Of a stretch of 64,000 bases of DNA, positions 14,698-51,845 are shown piece after piece. The stretch covers positions 768,218 to 832,217 of the forward strand of contig BQJC01000001.1 in the NCBI GenBank assembly GCA_021604505.1, in the 5' to 3' direction. The notes below the pieces were generated by a model. It was not told the origin of the DNA, searched no databases, and saw only the letters and a list, made by a program, of their open reading frames with translations. The translations under genes and the position numbers were made by a program. Source of the DNA: Nitrospinaceae bacterium. Lineage in GTDB: Bacteria > Nitrospinota > Nitrospinia > Nitrospinales > VA-1. Position 1 is the stretch's first letter; each line of letters opens with the position of its first letter.

Positions 14698-16610
14698 GTG
14701 TATTTCGCTATAGCGCGGATGTTTCGGAAACCGTCCGGGGAAAAATCAAGATATTTGTGGTGCTGGTCATCATTGCCTTTTTATGTCTGTGGATGCGGAT
14801 TTGGTACCTGCAGATATTAAAGGGGGCGTACTTTCAGGCCAAATCCGAAAACAACCGCGTCCGGTTGACTGCCCTTCCTGCTTACCGGGGAACCATCAAG
14901 GACCGCAACGAAGAAACCCTCGTCAGCATCCGCCCGTCCTTCAATCTTTACGTCACACCGGAAGACGCGCAAAATCTACCCGAAACGCTGAAATGGTTGC
15001 AGGAAATCATTGAATTCGACAAAGATCAGGTGTTCCAACGGATCAAGGAAACGCCGCCTTTCAAACAGGTATTGATCAAAAGAGACATCGACCGCAAGCA
15101 GGTTGCCATTGTGGAAGAGAGCAAGATGCGGCTCCCAGGCATCGACATCAAAGTCGAGCCTCTTAGAAGCTACGTTTATGGCGACATGGCGACCCACGTT
15201 CTGGGGTATTTGGGAGAGATATCCAAGACCAAACTCGAAAGCCTGAACGACCCCAGCTTTGAGCAGGGAGACTTCATAGGCAAGAACGGATTGGAAATTA
15301 TTTATGAAACCATGTTGCGCGGCAAGAAGGGGTACAAGGAAGTAGAAGTCGATGTTTCCGGCCGCGAACTGCAAACCCTGAGAAAGCTTCCGCCCAAAAG
15401 CGGCAACACCCTGGTTCTGACGCTGGACCTTCGCGTGCAGAAAGTTTTGGAAGAAGTCATGACCGGAACGCCGGAGGATCCCATTTCCGGGTCCGTCGTG
15501 GCGATGAAAGTCCACACCGGCGAGATCATCGCCATCGCCAGCAAACCCTCCTTTGACTCCAACCTGTTCGCCGCGGGAATTTCCAGGGACAACTGGAAGA
15601 CGCTTGTGGAAGATGAACTCCATCCCCTGCAACACCGGACCATCAGCGGTCAATATCCCCCAGGCTCGACCTACAAAATCGTCACCGCCCTCGCGGGACT
15701 GGAAGAAAACATCGTCACACCCGAAACGACCTTTTACTGCCCAGGCCATTTTCGATTGGGACGGGGGAAGTACCGTTGCTGGAAACGCGGCGGGCACGGC
15801 ACCGTGGATCTTCATAAAGCCCTCGTGCAATCCTGCGACGTGTATTTTTATACCGTCGGCAACCGGCTGGGCATCGACAAACTGCACGAATACGCCAGAA
15901 TGCTCGGCCTGGGCGAATACACCGGAATCCAGTTGATGGGAGAAAAACGCGGGATCAACCCCAGCACAAAATGGAAACTCGCCAGCCGCAACGAACCCTG
16001 GTTGTTGGGCGAGACCATTTCCGCCTCCATCGGTCAGGGCTACAACCTGGTGACCCCCCTTCAGCAGGCGAAAATGATGGCCACCGTCGCCAATGGAGGC
16101 GTGGCGCTGAAACCCTATCTGGTGAAAAAAATCATCGACCCCGATGGCAAAACCATCAAGGAATTTCATGCCAAAGTAGAAAACAAAATCAAAGTGCATC
16201 CCGAATACCTGGAGCTCGTGAAAAAAGCTCTGTTGGGCGTGGTGAATGAGCCCAGGGGAACGGGCCGCCGGTCGCGCCTCAAAGACATCCAAGTGTCGGG
16301 AAAAACCGGAACCGCCCAGGTGGTCAAACTAAAAGTCACCGAAGACATCGAAGATGAAGATAAAATTCCCTACCACTTTCGCGACCACGCCTGGTTCGTG
16401 GCGTTCGCCCCCTATGAAAAACCGGAAATCGCGGTAGCGGTTTTAGTCGAACACGGAGGTCATGGCGGGGCCAGCGCGGCGCCCGTGGCAAAAAAAGTGA
16501 TGGAGGCCTACTTCAAACATTACCCGCCGTATGAATTGCTGGAAAAAGCCGAATCCATTGCAAATGGAGTGCAAGAGGTGGAAAAGGAAGAAAAGCCGTC
16601 CAACCCTTAA
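14694..16610 (+). CDS. mrdA: Penicillin-binding protein 2 (elongasome transpeptidase)
   Basis: Contains a PBP dimerisation domain and the transpeptidase motifs STYK, SCD and KTGTA. Confidence 0.92.
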   Translation: MSVFRYSADVSETVRGKIKIFVVLVIIAFLCLWMRIWYLQILKGAYFQAKSENNRVRLTALPAYRGTIKDRNEETLVSIRPSFNLYVTPEDAQNLPETLKWLQEIIEFDKDQVFQRIKETPPFKQVLIKRDIDRKQVAIVEESKMRLPGIDIKVEPLRSYVYGDMATHVLGYLGEISKTKLESLNDPSFEQGDFIGKNGLEIIYETMLRGKKGYKEVEVDVSGRELQTLRKLPPKSGNTLVLTLDLRVQKVLEEVMTGTPEDPISGSVVAMKVHTGEIIAIASKPSFDSNLFAAGISRDNWKTLVEDELHPLQHRTISGQYPPGSTYKIVTALAGLEENIVTPETTFYCPGHFRLGRGKYRCWKRGGHGTVDLHKALVQSCDVYFYTVGNRLGIDKLHEYARMLGLGEYTGIQLMGEKRGINPSTKWKLASRNEPWLLGETISASIGQGYNLVTPLQQAKMMATVANGGVALKPYLVKKIIDPDGKTIKEFHAKVENKIKVHPEYLELVKKALLGVVNEPRGTGRRSRLKDIQVSGKTGTAQVVKLKVTEDIEDEDKIPYHFRDHAWFVAFAPYEKPEIAVAVLVEHGGHGGASAAPVAKKVMEAYFKHYPPYELLEKAESIANGVQEVEKEEKPSNP

Positions 16611-17176
16611 CGGACGAAAATGTCCACGCTCGCCGCATTTTCGTGGCCGGATTCCAGAAGACGGTAGAGCAATCGGTAAGAGCCGCTTCTGACAAAACCC
16701 AACCGGATACTTTTATTATGCGGGAGTTTTTTCAACGAGAAAACTTCCTCGTTGCTGTCCACATGGCATAACGAAATATCCTGCAGAGAATCCTCGTGGT
16801 CATTTTTTAGAATGACGCCGGATTTGGGGGACACGAAAACAGGAGCCGGATGTTGACTAGCGTGTTTCATGTAAATGGTGGTGGACTTGAACCCGGTACC
16901 CCGGTTCAGATTGAACTTCCCCGTCCAGGGATGTTCCCAATAACTGAATTCAATAAACCGTTCATTGATGAACTGAGCAAAAACCCGGTTTTCGATCTGC
17001 CGTTCGGGGTCTTTCAAAAGTCGATTCACGTTAACACGCATTGAGGTTAATGAGGCACGTTCAATGTAAAACGAAGCGCTGGCGGCGGCAATCAGCATAA
17101 TTCCTAAAAAAAGTGTAGGAAAATTCCTAATAGGCCGGAAAAAAGTTGTGCGGGGCGGAGGGCTAACCCCCCTCAA
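16607..17176 (-). CDS. Hypothetical membrane-anchored protein (189 aa), no recognisable family
   Basis: A single N-terminal TM segment (FPTLFLGIMLIAAASASFYI) and a probable TTG start. Its stop codon overlaps the mrdA stop within the sequence TTAA. Confidence 0.5.
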   Translation of the reverse strand: MRGVSPPPRTTFFRPIRNFPTLFLGIMLIAAASASFYIERASLTSMRVNVNRLLKDPERQIENRVFAQFINERFIEFSYWEHPWTGKFNLNRGTGFKSTTIYMKHASQHPAPVFVSPKSGVILKNDHEDSLQDISLCHVDSNEEVFSLKKLPHNKSIRLGFVRSGSYRLLYRLLESGHENAASVDIFVR

Positions 17177-17368: not shown

Positions 17369-18460
17369 TCAGACCAATTTTAACTTTAGAAAGTCCTTAT
17401 CTTTCTTTTTAGATTCTTCTAATTGTTTAGGCAAACCAACTAAGCCAAATACAAGATTTTCAATTTCATAAACTGGAATATTTAATTGAGAAGCAATATC
17501 TTTTTTTGTGATTCGATCATTCCATAAATCTGTAAAAACCTTTTTCCATACGGTAGAAATTTCTCGCTCTATTTCATTGGGTTCTTTTGTTCGATATCCA
17601 TAACTACTTAGTTGAATACACAAGGTACGATAATTTCTTTCAGAAATGATTCCAAGTTTTTTCAACCTATATGTAAGGGCCATAACTGATACCCGCCATC
17701 TTTTCTTTGCATAAATCAATTGATCAATCGAAGTAATACAGGGAATTTTTGCAAGAATATCTGCTTCAGGCATGAGGAATGATGAAGCAAAATCATTTGC
17801 TTCAATTTCGACCTGCCTTCCTTGTTTAGGCCCCCCGTGCTTATGTAAAACTAAATGCCCTAACTCATGCGCGGCGTCAAAACGACTATGCTCCGCAGTT
17901 TTAAAAGTATTTAAAAAAACAAATGGAACATTTTTTTCCCAACAAGAAAACGCATCTACATTTTTTGTGTTTTCTGACAAGGAGAATACCCGCAGTCCTT
18001 TGGATTCTAAAAGCTGAACCATATTTCCAATTGGTTGCTCACCCAAGCACCAATGTTGTCGTAAAATTCTGGCAGCTACAGCTGGTTCACTTTCTTGCCC
18101 TAAATCCAATAGGTCAGGCTTCGGTAGCTCAAAACGTTCAGACACCCAATCCGAAAGTAAATATGCTAGTGACCCAGCTGCTAAAGCCGCATCTCTCTCT
18201 TTAGCGGTCATTGCAACCATACTTCTAAAACTGGCTGAGTCCTTATCTAACTCATCTAAATCATTTCCAAAAAAAAAGTCCTTAGGATATCTGAGGGCAG
18301 TAGCAATTTTTTCTATTGTTTCCTTTTTGGGAATATTATCTCCTCTTTCGATTCTGGTTATTTGAACCGGAGTTACTCCCACTAACTCTGCAAGAGCTTT
18401 ACTCGTTAGCCTACATCTCTTCCTTATCAGGCTGAATCTTTTATGGTTAAACATAGACAT
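17369..18460 (-). CDS. Fused XRE-family HTH / ImmA-IrrE (M78, COG2856) metallopeptidase
   Basis: The N-terminal HTH reads LTSKALAELVGVTPVQITRIERG, and the zinc motif is HELGH followed by E..NDFASSFLMP. I chose the ATG at 18460, which lies 1 nt after the upstream gene's stop. Confidence 0.85.
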   Translation of the reverse strand: MSMFNHKRFSLIRKRCRLTSKALAELVGVTPVQITRIERGDNIPKKETIEKIATALRYPKDFFFGNDLDELDKDSASFRSMVAMTAKERDAALAAGSLAYLLSDWVSERFELPKPDLLDLGQESEPAVAARILRQHWCLGEQPIGNMVQLLESKGLRVFSLSENTKNVDAFSCWEKNVPFVFLNTFKTAEHSRFDAAHELGHLVLHKHGGPKQGRQVEIEANDFASSFLMPEADILAKIPCITSIDQLIYAKKRWRVSVMALTYRLKKLGIISERNYRTLCIQLSSYGYRTKEPNEIEREISTVWKKVFTDLWNDRITKKDIASQLNIPVYEIENLVFGLVGLPKQLEESKKKDKDFLKLKLV

Positions 18461-18461
18461 C

Positions 18462-19106
18462 CTATTTTCGTGCAATATTAACTTCAAATTCCTTAAAATC
18501 ACCATCATCACCATCATCAAAATTTGACAATGAAAATTCAGGAAGATCTCCATCTCCATCTTGTAGGAGAAAAATTCTTTCTAAAAATCCAGAGAACTGA
18601 CCACAATCAACTGATTTCGGCAGGGACAACTCTGCTGAAATAATACCTTGATTTTCAGATACGCACAGATACCAAGCTGAAGTTTTATTTGCAGGCATTG
18701 CTCGATTTATTTCCTCCTCAGAAAATAAAATCCCTTGATTGTTAGAGACAGTCCGCTCAGACCCTGGACCTTTTTTTGACCTGGCTCTTGGTTCCCAATT
18801 CTTTTCGGATGCACGATCAACATTCTGAAAAATAATTTTTATTGTTGCTATAGAATTTACTATTCCCTCTACAGAATCTTTTCTATTGATTTGCCACCCT
18901 TGGGAACGAAGGATTTCCCTCAGAGACCTTGTTCCCGCAAAATATGCTAACGACCCTGGGGCATTTGCTGCATCATTATCGGTACAACTATTTCGAGCTA
19001 ATACAGCATCGTGGATTACCTTAATAAGATCGGAACGAACTAAACCCATTTTCTTCAATTTTTTACCAACTTCATCACTATCTTCTAATATCCTTGCCAG
19101 TTCCAT
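18462..19106 (-). CDS. Hypothetical protein (214 aa) with an acidic D/G-rich C-terminal tail; no family recognised
   Basis: An intact ORF with RBS GAGGTG upstream, tightly coupled to the ImmA-like gene. The sequence is AT-rich. Confidence 0.65.
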   Translation of the reverse strand: MELARILEDSDEVGKKLKKMGLVRSDLIKVIHDAVLARNSCTDNDAANAPGSLAYFAGTRSLREILRSQGWQINRKDSVEGIVNSIATIKIIFQNVDRASEKNWEPRARSKKGPGSERTVSNNQGILFSEEEINRAMPANKTSAWYLCVSENQGIISAELSLPKSVDCGQFSGFLERIFLLQDGDGDLPEFSLSNFDDGDDGDFKEFEVNIARK

Positions 19107-19135
19107 AAGACACCTCGTACGTTAATATTCGTGTG

Positions 19136-19164
19136 AATTTTTACATAAAAAATTAACATGGTCA
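19136..19164 (-). promoter_or_regulatory. Candidate promoter of the two-gene cassette
   Basis: On the minus strand: TTGACC (19164-19159), a 17-nt spacer ending in TGT, then AAAAAT (19141-19136). Confidence 0.3.
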
Positions 19165-19225
19165 AGAGATTCATGGTAATTTTTTCGTCATATCGAAACA
19201 GGTGGGAGGGATATAGGTTCTTCCA

Positions 19226-19348
19226 TCAAGCAGAAATCATCAGATCTTTATCGTGTAAACGCTTGATGCGGTCGCGGAGTTCGGCGGCTTTTTCAAACTC
19301 CAGATTTTTGGCCGCCGCGAACATTTGTTTCTCCAGCCGCGCAATCAA
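19226..19348 (-). pseudogene. Displaced duplicate of the uvrB 3' end (last 40 codons plus stop)
   Basis: Encodes [40 protein letters not shown] followed by a stop. It differs from uvrB 20203-20325 at 14 of 123 nt, mostly at synonymous sites. Confidence 0.85.
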
Positions 19349-19424: not shown

Positions 19425-19754
19425 TCAAGCCAATACAACGTCTTGGGGAGATTCCCCTTTTCTTCGACGGGTGACCTGAACCCTTACCTTTCGATCCAGC
19501 TTATTCAAAAATGCAAACAACCGTTCCTGGGAGAACAGTGTGTAGCGACCGTTCATCAGGTTCGATACTTCCGGTTGCTTGATCTCCAGGAGTTTGCCGA
19601 TCTCTCGTTGCTTGAGTTTTTTCTTTTCAAGGATCATCCGCACGGAATGACCGAGTTTGGCCCGTATTAAAAGTTCTTCGGAATCATCCAGTCCCAAATC
19701 TTCAAACACATTTCCAGAACTTTCTTCAAAGGCTATTTTTTCATTTTTCTTCAT
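19425..19754 (-). CDS. higA: XRE-family HTH antitoxin (HigA-like)
   Basis: Contains the HTH LKQREIGKLLEIKQPEVSNLMNG. It overlaps the upstream toxin gene by 4 nt. Confidence 0.85.
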   Translation of the reverse strand: MKKNEKIAFEESSGNVFEDLGLDDSEELLIRAKLGHSVRMILEKKKLKQREIGKLLEIKQPEVSNLMNGRYTLFSQERLFAFLNKLDRKVRVQVTRRRKGESPQDVVLA

Positions 19755-20113
19755 GATTGTTTTTCCTTTTCTATTGCCACGGCTTCCTTATAACGCCGAG
19801 CGATCATTTCGATATCCAGCTTGGCTGTTTTTCGGCCCTTGGGAGCTTTCTTCTGAAATGCATGCAGAACGTAAACCCGTTTGCCAATCTGCACCGCGTA
19901 AACTGTGCGGTAGGTGTTGGTTTCGAAGCGGGTGACGATTTCCAGGACTCCGCTGGCCACGCCCTTAAACGGCTTGGCTTGCGGAGGTTTTGTCCCTTTT
20001 TGAACGTCAAAAAGCGCGGCTCCAATGTCCTGCCGCGCTTCCCGTGGAAACGATTGAACCTGTTTTCGCGCATCTCCCACCCATACCACGGGTTTCAGAT
20101 TGTCTTCATCCAT
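19751..20113 (-). CDS. higB: RelE/ParE-superfamily toxin, Gp49/HigB-like (DUF891)
   Basis: Matches the pattern KPVVWVG...FP...R..IG..L..VQ.G..P...KP...V..GV.EI......YR.VY......VYVLHAFQKK. Confidence 0.8.
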   Translation of the reverse strand: MDEDNLKPVVWVGDARKQVQSFPREARQDIGAALFDVQKGTKPPQAKPFKGVASGVLEIVTRFETNTYRTVYAVQIGKRVYVLHAFQKKAPKGRKTAKLDIEMIARRYKEAVAIEKEKQS

Positions 20114-20202: not shown

Positions 20203-22194
20203 TCAAGCCGAGATCATCAGATCTTTGTCACGCAGGCGTTTGATCCGGTCGCGGAGTTCGGCGGCTTTTTCAAACTCCAGGTTCTTGGCCGCCGCGAACA
20301 TTTGTTTTTCCAGCCGCGAAATCAATTGATGGACGTTGCCGGTGTTGTTGTATTCCTCTTCCTCTTCGGCCACCAGCGGCACGACGGCAAATTTCTCTGC
20401 CTGGCTCAGGGATTCGCCCACGGATTTTACGATCGACGCGGGGGTGATGTTGTGTTTCTCGTTGTATTCCAGTTGAATCGTTCGCCGTCGGTTCATCTCG
20501 GTGATCGCCGCCTGCATGGAGCGGGTCACCGTGTCGGCGTACATGATGACTTTGCCCTCGACATGACGGGCCGCGCGGCCCGACGTTTGAATCAGCGAGG
20601 TCGTGGAACGCAAAAATCCCTCCTTGTCCGCATCGAGAATGGCGACGAGGGTCACTTCCGGAATGTCCAACCCTTCGCGCAACAGGTTGATGCCGATCAA
20701 GGCGTCGAATTCCCCGAGACGCAGTTCGCGGATGATCTGGCTCCGCTCCAGGGTCACGATGTCGGAATGCAGGTATTTCACCTTCAGCCCCAGTTCGGAA
20801 TAATGTTCCGTCAAGTCCTCCGAAAACCGTTTGGTGAGCGTGGTGATCAGAATGCGTTCCTCTTTTTCTGCCCGTTTTAATATCTCATGGTGCAGGTCGT
20901 CCACCTGGCCTTTGACCGGTTTTATCTCGACTTCGGGATCGACCAGCCCGGTCGGGCGCACGATCAATTCCACCACCTTGCCGTCTGACTTTTCGATTTC
21001 ATAAGGCCCCGGCGTCGCGGACACATAGATCACCTGGTTGACGTGCTCCTGGAATTCATGAAATTGCAGGGGCCGGTTGTCGAACGCCGAAGGCAGGCGG
21101 AATCCGTAGCGCACGAGGGTTTCCTTGCGCGAGCGGTCGCCCTTGTACATGCCCTGCAATTGCGGCAGGGTGACGTGGCTCTCGTCGATGACGAACAGCG
21201 AGTCGTCGGGAAAATAGTCCAGAAGCGTGGGCGGCGGTTCGCCTGCCGGGCGGTCCATCAGGTGGCGCGAGTAATTCTCGATGCCCTGGCAATAGCCCAC
21301 CTCCTTGATCATTTCCAGATCGAACATCGTCCGCTGATCGATGCGTTGCGCCTCGACCAGCAGGTTCTGGCTTTCAAAATAGTGCACGCGCTCTATGAGT
21401 TCCTCGCGGATGGCGGCAATGGCCTTGTTCAGCAGTTCCTTGGGGGTCGCGTAATGACTGGCCGGGTAAATGGCGATGCGGTCCAGATCGCGGATGCCTT
21501 TGCCCGTTAATGGGTCGAAAGCCTGAATGCGGTCGATCTGGTCGCCAAAAAACTCGATGCGCACGGCTTCGTTGCGTTCGTAGACCGGCAGCACTTCCAC
21601 CACATCGCCGCGCACCCGGAACGTGCCGCGCTGGAAGTCGATATCGTTGCGCTTGTACTGGATGTCCACCAGCTTTTTCAACACCTGTTCCCGGTCGATG
21701 GTCATGCCCCGTTCGGCAAACACCAGCATGCCGTGATAGGCTTCCGGCGATCCCAGTCCGTAGATGCAGGAGACGCTGGCGACGATCACCACATCCCGCC
21801 GTTCAAACAGCGAATGCGTGGCGGCGTGGCGCATTTTGTCGATTTCATCGTTGATGGAGGCGTCTTTTTCGATGTACGTGTCGGTATTGGCGAGATACGC
21901 TTCCGGTTGATAGTAATCGTAATAACTGACAAAATAGCCCACCGCGTTTTCCGGGAAAAAGGCTTTGAATTCGCTGTACAATTGCGCCGCCAGGGTTTTG
22001 TTATGCGCCAGGACCAGCGTCGGTTTTTGAATCTCCTGAATGACGTTGGCGATGGTGTAGGTTTTCCCGGACCCGGTCACCCCCAGAAGCGTTTGCCGGG
22101 GGGTCGCGGAATCGCAGTTTTTCACCAGTTGTTCGATGGCTTTGGGTTGATCGCCGGCAGGCTGGAACTCGGCGTGCAATTTGAACGGGGTCAT
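20203..22194 (-). CDS. uvrB: Excinuclease ABC subunit B
   Basis: Contains GVTGSGKT, helicase motifs, and a C-terminal UVR domain ([13 protein letters not shown]). Length 663 aa. Confidence 0.97.
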
Positions 22195-49777: not shown

Positions 49778-49846
49778 CGATCAGGGTAGCATTTTCACTC
49801 ATCTGTTTTATTTGTGATTCCTTTCCGGTAGAAAAGCCTTTCAGAA

Positions 49847-50182
49847 TTGCAAAAGGGTAGAGCGGTGGAAAAAGAATCTTTCAAGGAATTCGTTCTCGAT
49901 CAATTGCATCTGTTGGAGCGGGTCGACTGCAAGGCCATGTTCGGCGGCTACGGTCTTTATCAAGCCGGTGCATTCTTCGCGATCATCGCCGATGGCCGGC
50001 TTTATTTTAAGACGGGTGAAGCCACCGTTTCCGACTACCTCGACCGGGACATGAAACCCTTTCAACCCAATTCCAAGCAGACCCTGAAGAATTATTACGA
50101 AGTGCCCGCGGAGATTCTGGAGGATGACGAGCAACTCGCAATGTGGGCTCGGAAAGCGGTTGCTGTAACAAGACAGTTGTAA
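49847..50182 (+). CDS. TfoX N-terminal-domain protein
   Basis: Contains KAMFGGYGLY..G.FFAII.DG.LYFK. The start may be TTG 49847 or GTG 49865. Confidence 0.72.
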   Translation: MQKGRAVEKESFKEFVLDQLHLLERVDCKAMFGGYGLYQAGAFFAIIADGRLYFKTGEATVSDYLDRDMKPFQPNSKQTLKNYYEVPAEILEDDEQLAMWARKAVAVTRQL

Positions 50183-50415
50183 TAATTCGGACTTTATCTG
50201 ATTAAAGTGTTGCGTTGACCGGTTGAAGTCACAACCCAAAGCGGACGTTGGTTGGTTACGAGGAATAGAATCATAGTTTATACCAATGGCATCTATAGAA
50301 TGTTGTCTACGAATAACCACTCATTAGGGTATCACCCATGCCTAAACTATTAGGCTTTTAAATTGTGAAAAATCTGATTTTAATAATTTAAATGAAAATA
50401 TTTGAGGTTTTTATA

Positions 50416-51033
50416 ATGAATATTCTCTCACCACTTTTAATCGCACTTCTTCTTTCTGGATGCTTCGCTCAAACACTTAATAAAAGCCACGCCAATAGAT
50501 ATTATTCTTATGCGGTCCAGAGTGAAAAAGAGGGAAATTGGTTTGAAGCCCGAAAGGGATTCGCGCGCGCTTGGACAAATGTTACCCTGGCACATGGTGG
50601 AGATGAAGCGATTGCAGCGGTTGCCTACGAATATGGTCGTACATCAGGCGTGATTTGTGATTGGGAAGAAGCAGAAAGAGGCCTCCTGGAGTCCTATAAA
50701 TTCCACAAAAATACTCATAGTCCTACTTTGGTAGAGTTGGCAAGAATGTATCATGCCCATGGAGACCTAAATAAGTCTGAGGAATTTTTTCATTTAGCTA
50801 AAGAAGCGTTAGAAAAAAATCCCGCCACACTTAATATGTTTCCTATTGATTTCGCCAATTTTCTTGCAGAATTTGCGGCAGTTCTAAGCTCATTAGGCAA
50901 ACTTAAAGAAGCGGAGCAAATAGTAAAAAGTGAAAAAGAAGTCCGAAATAAATACAAGGGAAATTCCACCTTTCAAAATCCCACTCCATATGGAAGGTTT
51001 TGCCACCAAAACCCTCGCCATAAGCCAACATAA
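50416..51033 (+). CDS. Hypothetical lipoprotein with TPR-like helical repeats
   Basis: Has the lipobox LLLSGC after a short signal peptide and RBS GAGG upstream. The region is AT-rich. Confidence 0.55.
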   Translation: MNILSPLLIALLLSGCFAQTLNKSHANRYYSYAVQSEKEGNWFEARKGFARAWTNVTLAHGGDEAIAAVAYEYGRTSGVICDWEEAERGLLESYKFHKNTHSPTLVELARMYHAHGDLNKSEEFFHLAKEALEKNPATLNMFPIDFANFLAEFAAVLSSLGKLKEAEQIVKSEKEVRNKYKGNSTFQNPTPYGRFCHQNPRHKPT

Positions 51034-51144
51034 ATCGCCCAAATACCAAGTGTATCAAACAAATTCTCCTAATTTTAGCATTGCTGTGATTTAAAGTAGA
51101 ATCACATACAAATATTGATAGCTCTTTCAGAAGAGGAACTAAAA

Positions 51145-51699
51145 ATGGTGAAGAGTAAATTTTTTATTTTAACAATTTTTTTATTATTTATTTCCAATTG
51201 TGCAACTTCCTATGGGCCTGGAAGAATTGATATTAAGGATACATTCAGTATTGACTTTGAAAATACTTGGAAATCTCCACACGACCCCAAGAGTGATTAT
51301 CTTTTGCTGACAAGTGCCGATGGAAAATCAGAGTTTAAGATGGAATTTTTTTCTGGGCTAGAGGACGGTAAACCATTGTATTATTGGACTAAAGGAAATA
51401 ATTTTAGAAAAAATATGACCAACAAACAGATAGCCTTATTGTATTCAGATGCAATGGCAATTACTGGTTTTGAAAATGAAGTTTCCAAAATTGAACCGAG
51501 TAAGATAGGGCCTTTTGATGGGTTTATGTTTGAAGTTAAAATGAATAAAAAAGGGAAGAATGTTAGGAGTTTGGTCGCAGGAATGGTAATTGATGAAAAA
51601 CTTTTTTTGATTCAATTTGAGGTTGAGGAAGAAAAATTATTCCTTAAACACATTGGGTTTTTCAAGGCAATGCTTGCATCGATTAAAAGTATTGAATAA
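51145..51699 (+). CDS. Hypothetical lipoprotein
   Basis: Has a signal peptide with lipobox FISNC and RBS AGAGGA upstream. The region is AT-rich and no family is recognised. Confidence 0.55.
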   Translation: MVKSKFFILTIFLLFISNCATSYGPGRIDIKDTFSIDFENTWKSPHDPKSDYLLLTSADGKSEFKMEFFSGLEDGKPLYYWTKGNNFRKNMTNKQIALLYSDAMAITGFENEVSKIEPSKIGPFDGFMFEVKMNKKGKNVRSLVAGMVIDEKLFLIQFEVEEEKLFLKHIGFFKAMLASIKSIE

Positions 51700-51845
51700 T
51701 TTCAAGGTGTAGCATTTAAAGTAAAAAGCTAAGAGATTCTTTCTGCAGCCGAATGTCCGCTATTGGCTGCGGTCTTTCAGGACCCGAGAACGTCTGACAC
51801 TGTCTTTTATATTGGAGTCAACTACTACCACTTAGTGTACTTTTC

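Follow-up and report, generated by a model that had tools for sequence, protein, structure and literature searches.

Introduction

RosmerTA is a published kind of toxin–antitoxin (TA) module (Millman et al., 2022, bioRxiv 10.1101/2022.05.11.491447; Ernits et al., 2023, PMC10440598). Its antitoxin, RmrA, is an ImmA-type node that is partnered with many different toxins (Ernits et al., 2023), and these toxins, the RmrT proteins, are mutually unrelated and differ in their action. Here, we analyze a two-gene cassette in a 64,000-nucleotide stretch of a Nitrospinaceae chromosome (assembly GCA_021604505.1, contig BQJC01000001.1, positions 768,218 to 832,217; in the following, the window). This cassette, which lies between uvrB and mrdA, is very probably a RosmerTA module of the TA and abortive-infection type with anti-phage function, acquired by lateral transfer. 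It is a new copy and not a new kind of module. A preliminary description, read from the letters of the window, had presented it as a candidate undescribed stress or defence module, composed of an orphan 214-residue protein and a fusion of an XRE-type helix-turn-helix (HTH) domain with an ImmA/IrrE-type metalloprotease.

The RosmerTA system of Escherichia coli OLC-716 is a verified phage-defence system, and its delta-rmrA mutant could not be transformed (Millman et al., 2022). In three Pectobacteriaceae, rmrA is essential, while clpX is essential only in strains that carry Rosmer; more generally, clpP or clpX turns essential in strains that carry such modules. A member from the Gordonia phage Kita, whose toxin RmrT(D5) localizes to the membrane and depolarizes it, has narrow anti-phage activity (Ernits et al., 2023). 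By contrast, the Rosmer-family pair RipA/RipB (Spr1630/Spr1629) of Streptococcus pneumoniae hits the sliding clamp DnaN at its hydrophobic pocket; RipB, the antitoxin of the pair, is ClpX-dependent (Maziero et al., 2025, PMC12795458). Protease–repressor switches constitute another group of systems to which RmrA can be compared; among these, single-stranded DNA activates CapP (PMC13228613).

In the following, we describe the evidence for the identity of the cassette, its distribution, its regulatory region and its two proteins, reconstruct the history of the insertion site and compare the locus with the known systems.

Identification of the cassette

The cassette consists of two genes on the minus strand, spanning positions 17369–19106 of the window:

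18462..19106, minus strand: rmrT, predicted soluble, acidic RosmerTA toxin of 214 residues (PADLOC, hhalign, family size, AlphaFold2 model, no transmembrane segment)
17369..18460, minus strand: rmrA, antitoxin of 363 residues with an XRE-type HTH domain, an M78/ImmA-IrrE-type zinc peptidase domain and a conserved C-terminal region (PADLOC, Pfam, verified RmrA)

Just two of the PADLOC models for RmrT match the 214-residue protein, both over its full length (PDLC03932, E=2.4e-45; PDLC03935, E=2.9e-33), and the RmrA model PDLC03946 matches the 363-residue protein end to end (E=3.8e-157). For a direct comparison, the sequences of the verified system of E. coli OLC-716 were taken from Table S2 of Millman et al. 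(2022). The RmrA of the window is 49 % identical to the verified RmrA over 341 residues (E=2e-106). The two toxins are more distant: BLASTP aligns them over the N-terminal 108 residues with 27 % identity (E=5e-10), and hhalign over their full length (203 columns, 99.1 %, E=5.3e-19). PDLC03935, which the window RmrT also matches over its full length, is the best PADLOC model of the verified toxin. These protein and profile matches to the verified pair therefore place the two genes in the same toxin and antitoxin families, with the toxin in a sister subfamily. They also mean that the module, contrary to the preliminary description, is not undescribed. Standard defence annotation tools would label the cassette, and its annotation is corrected from a 'hypothetical protein' and a gene of a type commonly annotated as 'XRE family regulator' to a RosmerTA defence/TA module.

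The genes are as tightly spaced as first described: the stop codon of rmrT (TAG, 18462–18464) is separated by a single base (G, 18461) from the start codon of rmrA (ATG, 18458–18460), which ends with TGA at 17369–17371. In the mechanical list of open reading frames (ORFs), the rmrA frame runs to 18559 (396 residues) and overlaps rmrT; we place its true start at 18460, since the MxxFN position is the start in every homolog.

The cassette is foreign by composition. Its AT-richness had been noticed by eye and is borne out by a GC content of 37.2 % (rmrT 37.8 %, rmrA 36.8 %) against 48.7 % for the window (z = -3.06), which places it in the bottom 0.6 % of segments of the same size. GC at third codon positions is 0.25 and 0.28 in the two genes, compared with 0.75 in uvrB and 0.66 in mrdA, the core housekeeping genes between which the cassette is located. 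No phage, integrase or transfer genes were found beside it among the ORFs and Pfam matches of the window.

The verified Rosmer pair itself corresponds to WP_000286846.1 and WP_000483388.1 in E. coli 2011C-4251 (L019, NZ_CP027388.1, 3962784-3964625), where RefSeq names the two proteins only 'hypothetical protein' and 'helix-turn-helix domain-containing protein'. The surrounding region is P4-satellite-like, with genes for a DNA primase family protein and an Icd-like protein, and of 5,426 complete E. coli genomes, 10 carry the pair. In E. coli E101, the toxin known from clpP essentiality is WP_001179380.1, a different protein from the WP_000286846.1 of the verified OLC-716 locus.

Family, pairing and distribution

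The label 'orphan' does not hold for the 214-residue protein. While a word-indexed search returned only six relatives, with a 'hypothetical protein' of a Nitrospinaceae metagenome-assembled genome as the exact match, an exhaustive profile search found at least 1,501 cluster representatives, with E<=1e-10 for 636. The family members are almost all 205-225 residues long and matched end to end.

We collected loci from metagenome assemblies, five plasmids (of Streptomyces and of Alpha- and Betaproteobacteria), ten genomes of GTDB species, found in a scan with a six-sequence alignment, and one viral contig. In 16 of 16 independent loci, rmrT is directly followed by a full-length rmrA on the same strand, and the viral contig shows the same arrangement. 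The co-occurrence with an ImmA-type gene, which the preliminary description had put forward as decisive for its proposal, is thus found at every independent locus. These loci cover four phyla (Nitrospinota; Alpha-, Beta- and Gammaproteobacteria; Bacteroidota; Actinomycetota), and in 15 of them the distance from the rmrT stop to the rmrA start lies between -8 and +12 nucleotides. RmrA evolves more slowly than RmrT, with 41-62 % versus 26-45 % identity across loci, and the divergences of toxin and antitoxin co-vary (Spearman 0.83, p=6e-5).

The neighborhoods of the loci are mobile or defence-like and include conjugative plasmids, an integrase, insertion sequence (IS) elements and a type ISP restriction-modification enzyme; integrase genes or IS elements lie near the pair in L006 and L007. 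Altogether, the cassette was found on 24 plasmids, 12 of them conjugative. Beyond the unit of promoter, rmrT and rmrA, no neighbor gene is conserved across the 16 loci. RmrT had no match in 50,697 phage records and a single one in 2.9 million viral contigs.

Two of the plasmid loci have neighbors of a recognizable kind. On Paracoccus p7 (L005), the pair is located between a gene for a zincin-like metallopeptidase and one for a type ISP restriction-modification enzyme, and on Agrobacterium pAtCFBP7129a (L004), the gene right behind it is a DprA gene. In the defence systems ShosTA and PsyrTA, the antitoxin is a DprA-like protein.

Promoter and candidate operator

Upstream of rmrT, the following elements were recognized:

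19137..19165, minus strand: candidate sigma-70 promoter of rmrTA (promoter scan)
19160–19165, minus strand: -35 element TTGACC, 17-nucleotide spacer, and extended -10 element TGTAAAAAT at 19137–19145
19119..19159, minus strand: candidate palindromic operator with the arms ATGTTAAT at 19152–19159 and ATTAACGT at 19119–19126 (pattern search)
19111..19116, minus strand: Shine-Dalgarno sequence GAGGTG for rmrT (read from the sequence; conserved in L001)

The promoter region is conserved in a sister Nitrospinaceae genome (L001). Of the two palindrome arms, the left one is located within the promoter spacer, and the right one just past the likely transcription start, where it borders on the Shine-Dalgarno sequence. 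A search of the 64-kb window for GTTAAT-N16-34-ATTAAC gives a single occurrence, against an expectation of 0.10. This pattern is present in 9 of the 16 independent loci, across phyla and always 10-60 nucleotides upstream of rmrT, with one off-target match in about 150 kb; L003, L005 and L016 have variant palindrome arms in unchanged geometry. TTGAC precedes the palindrome in seven other loci whose upstream sequence was examined, while neither TTGAC nor the palindrome was seen at the verified E. coli locus L019. There is good comparative evidence that the palindrome is a family-specific candidate operator, and the HTH domain of RmrA would most simply be the domain that binds it.

RmrA, a fused HTH–protease

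The preliminary description had recognized the downstream protein as an XRE-type HTH joined to an M78 peptidase, and Pfam agrees:

18275..18427, minus strand: RmrA HTH domain, residues 12-62 (Pfam HTH_3, E=9.5e-12)
18224..18232, minus strand: S-F-R motif in the HTH–protease linker, residues 77-79; candidate cleavage or docking site (invariant, 18/18)
17660..18007, minus strand: RmrA M78 peptidase domain, residues 152-267 (Pfam Peptidase_M78, E=1.9e-22)
17855–17869, minus strand: HELGH motif, residues 198-202 (sequence)
17768–17809, minus strand: EIEANDFASSFLMP, residues 218-231, from E218 to FLMP (sequence)

In a set of 18 RmrA sequences that includes the verified E. coli protein, the residues H198, E199, H202, E218 and L229-M230-P231 are invariant. 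The invariance of HExxH, E218 and FLMP argues that RmrA is an active protease, as predicted, and not a degenerate scaffold. The S-F-R motif is likewise invariant in all 18 sequences, and its FR is also aligned in the structure PDB 9VZY. In profile comparisons, the HTH domain matches the P22 C2, HipB, ImmR, CapH and DdrO chains, the protease core matches CapP (7T5T, E=4.3e-10), and the full-length protein matches the phage family phrog_2439. Among solved structures, CapP and 9VZY come closest to RmrA by profile.

With these matches and the intact catalytic site, RmrA might be taken for a fused repressor–protease of the ImmR/ImmA or CapH/CapP kind that controls other genes, with RmrT acting as its sensor, co-factor or anti-repressor; the activation of CapP by single-stranded DNA (PMC13228613) provides a precedent for such a switch. 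We consider this explanation very improbable. Across the 16 loci, no neighbor gene is conserved, but only the two-gene unit and its own promoter, and it is this promoter on which the candidate operator sits. Furthermore, attempts to transform the homologous E. coli system failed when rmrA was missing, which indicates RmrT as toxic. A RosmerTA pair, with RmrT as the toxin and the HTH–M78 protein as its controller, as one of the initially proposed alternatives had it, is the best reading by homology to the verified pair.

RmrT, the predicted toxin

Scans of the 214-residue protein against Pfam, NCBIfam and PHROG gave no match, and a sequence profile search of the PDB with RmrT found nothing. The same holds for the family: among all 107 members scanned with Pfam and NCBIfam, no family was matched by more than two members, and the NCBIfam models matched none.

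Two features of RmrT are referred to below:

18723..18737, minus strand: Q124-G-I-L-F128 loop motif of RmrT, similar to clamp-binding motifs, a lead only (family alignment)
18465..18554, minus strand: acidic tail of RmrT, residues 185-214, of low confidence and ending in the basic residues R213-K214 (pLDDT 53-75)

The AlphaFold2 model of RmrT (mean predicted local distance difference test score, pLDDT, 90.4; predicted template modelling score 0.84) depicts a globular protein with three N-terminal helices, followed by a mixed alpha/beta core. The center of the protein, which had been thought to be disordered, is instead predicted with high confidence, as residues 91-120 have a pLDDT of 97; lower values are found for residues 121-140 (75-82) and for the tail 181-214 (53-75). 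A Foldseek search with this model, as had been suggested at the outset, yielded no match in the PDB or in BFVD. As a candidate fold, the PD-(D/E)XK nuclease fold (matches to 3NDH, DUF2800 and Cas4-like proteins) was considered and dropped, given template modelling scores of 0.2-0.3 and probabilities below 0.5.

RmrT is acidic (isoelectric point 5.0) and RmrA basic (9.1). No transmembrane segment was detected in RmrT, the maximal Kyte-Doolittle value in a 19-residue window being 1.01 (family median 0.92). Because it has no hydrophobic segment, a membrane-depolarizing mechanism is unlikely for this toxin. Conserved polar residues, namely D45, R60, R63, E80, Q94-N95-x-D97, S110-x-K112, E159 (100 %) and E176-R177, suggest a functional site. 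The D/G-rich acidic tail, by contrast, is present in the closest relatives only and its sequence is not conserved, which speaks against the earlier idea that it mimics nucleic acid. What is conserved is the very C-terminus, where the final aligned column is 100 % K/R and the penultimate one 95 % R/K.

Motifs of the QxxLF type resemble the consensus of beta-clamp-binding motifs. In the RmrT family, 41 of 107 members carry a strict Q..[LM]F at a fixed offset; for shuffled loops, the mean count is 0.7 and the highest 4. Conservation in this loop, which has a pLDDT of 75-82, is 77 % for L127 and 78 % for F128, and only 52 % for Q124; the corresponding loop of the verified E. coli toxin carries QGELIL and QLKLDL. 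Taken together, the motif weakly suggests clamp binding, and the LF pair could be merely a structural anchor. That the RmrT subfamily comprises soluble toxins which, like RipA, attack the replication sliding clamp via this loop motif, with the conserved basic C-terminus, at the end of a disordered acidic tail, as a handle for RmrA and/or ClpX, appears improbable to us. If it were true, attack on the sliding clamp would be common among the effectors of Rosmer systems, and not confined to the pneumococcus.

History of the site and neighboring genes

The history of the site was reconstructed from two genomes, the window and the sister genome L001. At the corresponding site, L001 has uvrB, a 120-nucleotide spacer, rmrT, rmrA and mrdA-mreDCB, and it is free of higBA. 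In the window, higBA (19425-20113; HigB (Gp49) and HigA (HTH_37)) is located between two direct copies of the last 123 nucleotides of uvrB (20203-20325 and 19226-19348), which are 89 % identical. The remnant copy, along with the spacer downstream of it, is the ortholog of the true uvrB end of L001. Since the remnant copy matches this true end, higBA seems to be a small insertion into the uvrB 3' end that came later and restored the end of the gene; no integrase is present with it. The preliminary description had placed the cassette in an insertion hot spot next to higBA. The later arrival of higBA and the signs of lateral exchange of the Rosmer genes bear this out in part, on a comparison of two genomes.

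Purifying selection acts on both Rosmer genes, whose dN/dS values (nonsynonymous over synonymous divergence) relative to L001 are 0.28 for rmrT and 0.15 for rmrA. Their synonymous divergence is low (dS 0.28 for rmrT and 0.25 for rmrA), while the flanking genes uvrB, mrdA, mreD, mreB and traB have 3-4 times higher values (0.82-1.15). Likewise, positions 17369-19165 of the window and 7940-9744 of L001 share 89-93 % nucleotide identity from the promoter to the rmrA stop, against 77-83 % in the flanking genes and 64-68 % in the immediate flanks. From the low dS and the high identity, it therefore seems that the unit of promoter, rmrT and rmrA was exchanged laterally, or by gene conversion, at this site after the split of the hosts; a rate effect caused by composition could conceivably be an alternative source of the low dS.

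One might also regard the cassette as a decayed immunity remnant of a prophage or integrative element that is no longer functional, as it consists of AT-rich, foreign DNA, as the match of RmrA to the phage family phrog_2439 spans the whole protein, and as the nearby duplication of the uvrB 3' end resembles the scar of an att site. Yet both ORFs are intact and under purifying selection (dN/dS 0.15-0.28), the catalytic residues as well as promoter and operator are intact, and no phage, integrase or transfer gene is adjacent in the window. Moreover, the uvrB duplication brackets higBA and not the Rosmer genes, and RmrT is matched by none of the phage records and by only one of the viral contigs. 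A decayed remnant is therefore hardly credible.

Two further observations concern the surroundings. Between rmrA and mrdA, a 189-residue ORF (16607-17176, minus strand) overlaps the mrdA stop by 4 nucleotides on the opposite strand; it has no match in Pfam, NCBIfam, PADLOC or PHROG and is a candidate gene, and L001 has a PNPOx-family gene at this position. A second stretch of low GC content is found at about 49800-51700, between the genes for a DUF1858 protein and MazG, with a minimum of 36.5 % in a 1.7-kb segment. Its ORFs (159, 213 and 194 residues) have no match to defence models, and weak TPR matches only.

Proposed working

By analogy to the homologs described in the literature, RmrT would be toxic, RmrA would neutralize it, and the pair would serve in phage defence. 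We propose that a single sigma-70 promoter drives rmrT and then rmrA, with translational coupling across the 1-nucleotide gap, and that the XRE-type HTH domain of RmrA may repress the operon by binding to the palindromic operator around the -10 element. RmrA would hold the soluble, acidic RmrT inactive by binding, by zinc-peptidase proteolysis or by both, and a host AAA+ protease (ATPase associated with diverse cellular activities) such as ClpX possibly assists in this control. Upon phage infection or another insult, the control by RmrA would be lifted, with the protease domain as the likely sensor and switch, in analogy to ImmA, IrrE and CapP. The freed RmrT, acting on whatever target is proper to its subfamily, might then arrest or kill the cell before phage progeny is released.

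Several points weigh against this reading. The experimental evidence comes from homologs, outside the window locus and outside the RmrT subfamily PDLC03932, and the verified E. coli toxin, a member of a sister subfamily, shares just 27 % identity with the window RmrT in the N-terminal half. The operator palindrome is missing from the verified E. coli locus, and its arms are about 31-34 bp apart, or about three helical turns, an uncommon distance for one HTH dimer. The RmrT model offers no structural precedent among the entries of the PDB and BFVD. A toxin mechanism is not transferable between Rosmer members, because their functions differ. Finally, two distant Rosmer homologs in Streptococcus thermophilus were inefficient against most phages tested, and because the reported defence by Rosmer systems is narrow, a role in addiction only is possible.

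The cassette would then be a pure addiction or stabilization module, i.e. a selfish TA pair with no meaningful anti-phage role in its host. This possibility, which we judge to be rather unlikely, fits the gene arrangement and close coupling, which are those of a classic type II TA operon, the occurrence on plasmids, 12 of 24 of which are conjugative, the adjoining higBA as another TA pair, the inefficiency of the S. thermophilus homologs, and the fact that the antitoxin is essential wherever it was tested. On the other hand, the systems of E. coli OLC-716, from the sister subfamily, and of phage Kita are verified to be phage-defensive, and several loci are found beside defence or mobile genes (the type ISP restriction-modification gene in L005, integrase or IS elements in L006 and L007). 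Defence and addiction are also not mutually exclusive. In proposing an accessory defence or TA module in foreign DNA, the preliminary description was right in kind.

The identification extends RosmerTA to Nitrospinota, with the window locus as the first member of this phylum to which we can point, and illustrates that core housekeeping genes can flank a cassette of this type without mobility genes nearby. We found no earlier report of the operator that lies over the promoter across phyla, of the 3-4 times lower dS of the promoter-rmrT-rmrA unit, of the confident RmrT fold that Foldseek matches to no entry in the PDB or BFVD, or of the QxxLF loop. Of these, the conserved operator provides a direct handle on the autoregulation of RmrA, the low synonymous divergence delimits the exchanged unit to promoter, rmrT and rmrA, and the RmrT model, together with the list of conserved residues, provides targets for mutagenesis.

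Comparison with known systems

The closest described system is that of E. coli OLC-716. As in the window, the toxin gene comes first and is tightly coupled to the antitoxin gene, the proteins having 239 and 370 residues, compared with 214 and 363. Both RmrA proteins are composed of HTH domain, SFR linker, M78 domain and C-terminal region. In the E. coli toxin, by contrast, the loop with QGELIL and QLKLDL contains a longer insertion, and the E. coli locus is devoid of the GTTAAT...ATTAAC operator and situated in a P4-satellite-like region, not between housekeeping genes.

The pneumococcal RipAB system shares with the window the fusion of an XRE-type HTH and an ImmA-type zinc protease, in RipB and RmrA, and a toxin without a known domain. 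The NCBIfam model for Spr1629 (NF052239) matches residues 3-296 of the window RmrA, i.e. HTH and protease, with 138.5 bits (E=2.9e-40). This score is far below the equivalog cut-off of 335 bits, and the C-terminal part beyond residue 296 differs from RipB. The QxxLF loop of the window RmrT resembles a clamp-binding motif, while DnaN targeting and ClpX dependence were demonstrated for RipAB only. The Kita system, in turn, has the ImmA-type RmrA antitoxin node and the two-gene architecture in common with the window, but its toxin is of a different kind, as the window RmrT is predicted to be an acidic, globular alpha/beta protein without a hydrophobic segment.

CapP, ImmA and IrrE possess the same M78/COG2856 zinc-peptidase core as RmrA, with HExxH and a downstream glutamate. 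Their partners CapH, ImmR and DdrO are XRE-type HTH proteins that resemble the HTH domain of RmrA, and the association with mobile or defence loci is common to all of them. In contrast to CapP/CapH, ImmA/ImmR and IrrE/DdrO, RmrA carries HTH and protease on one polypeptide, and its partner gene, rmrT, encodes a predicted toxin and not a repressor like CapH, ImmR or DdrO, with neither an HTH nor a Pfam domain. Activation by single-stranded DNA or DNA damage is a feature of CapP (PMC13228613) and IrrE. Unlike in these protease–repressor switches, no controlled downstream operon is conserved, and the neighbors differ in every RmrTA locus.

For the fused architecture itself, we found a single solved chain, PDB 9VZY, a 393-residue 'HTH cro/C1-type domain-containing protein' for which we found no publication. 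It aligns with residues 8-280 of the RmrA profile (E=4.3e-9), across HTH, linker (including FR) and protease. 9VZY is a distant relative of RmrA and may be the first structure of a fused HTH–M78 antitoxin-like protein.

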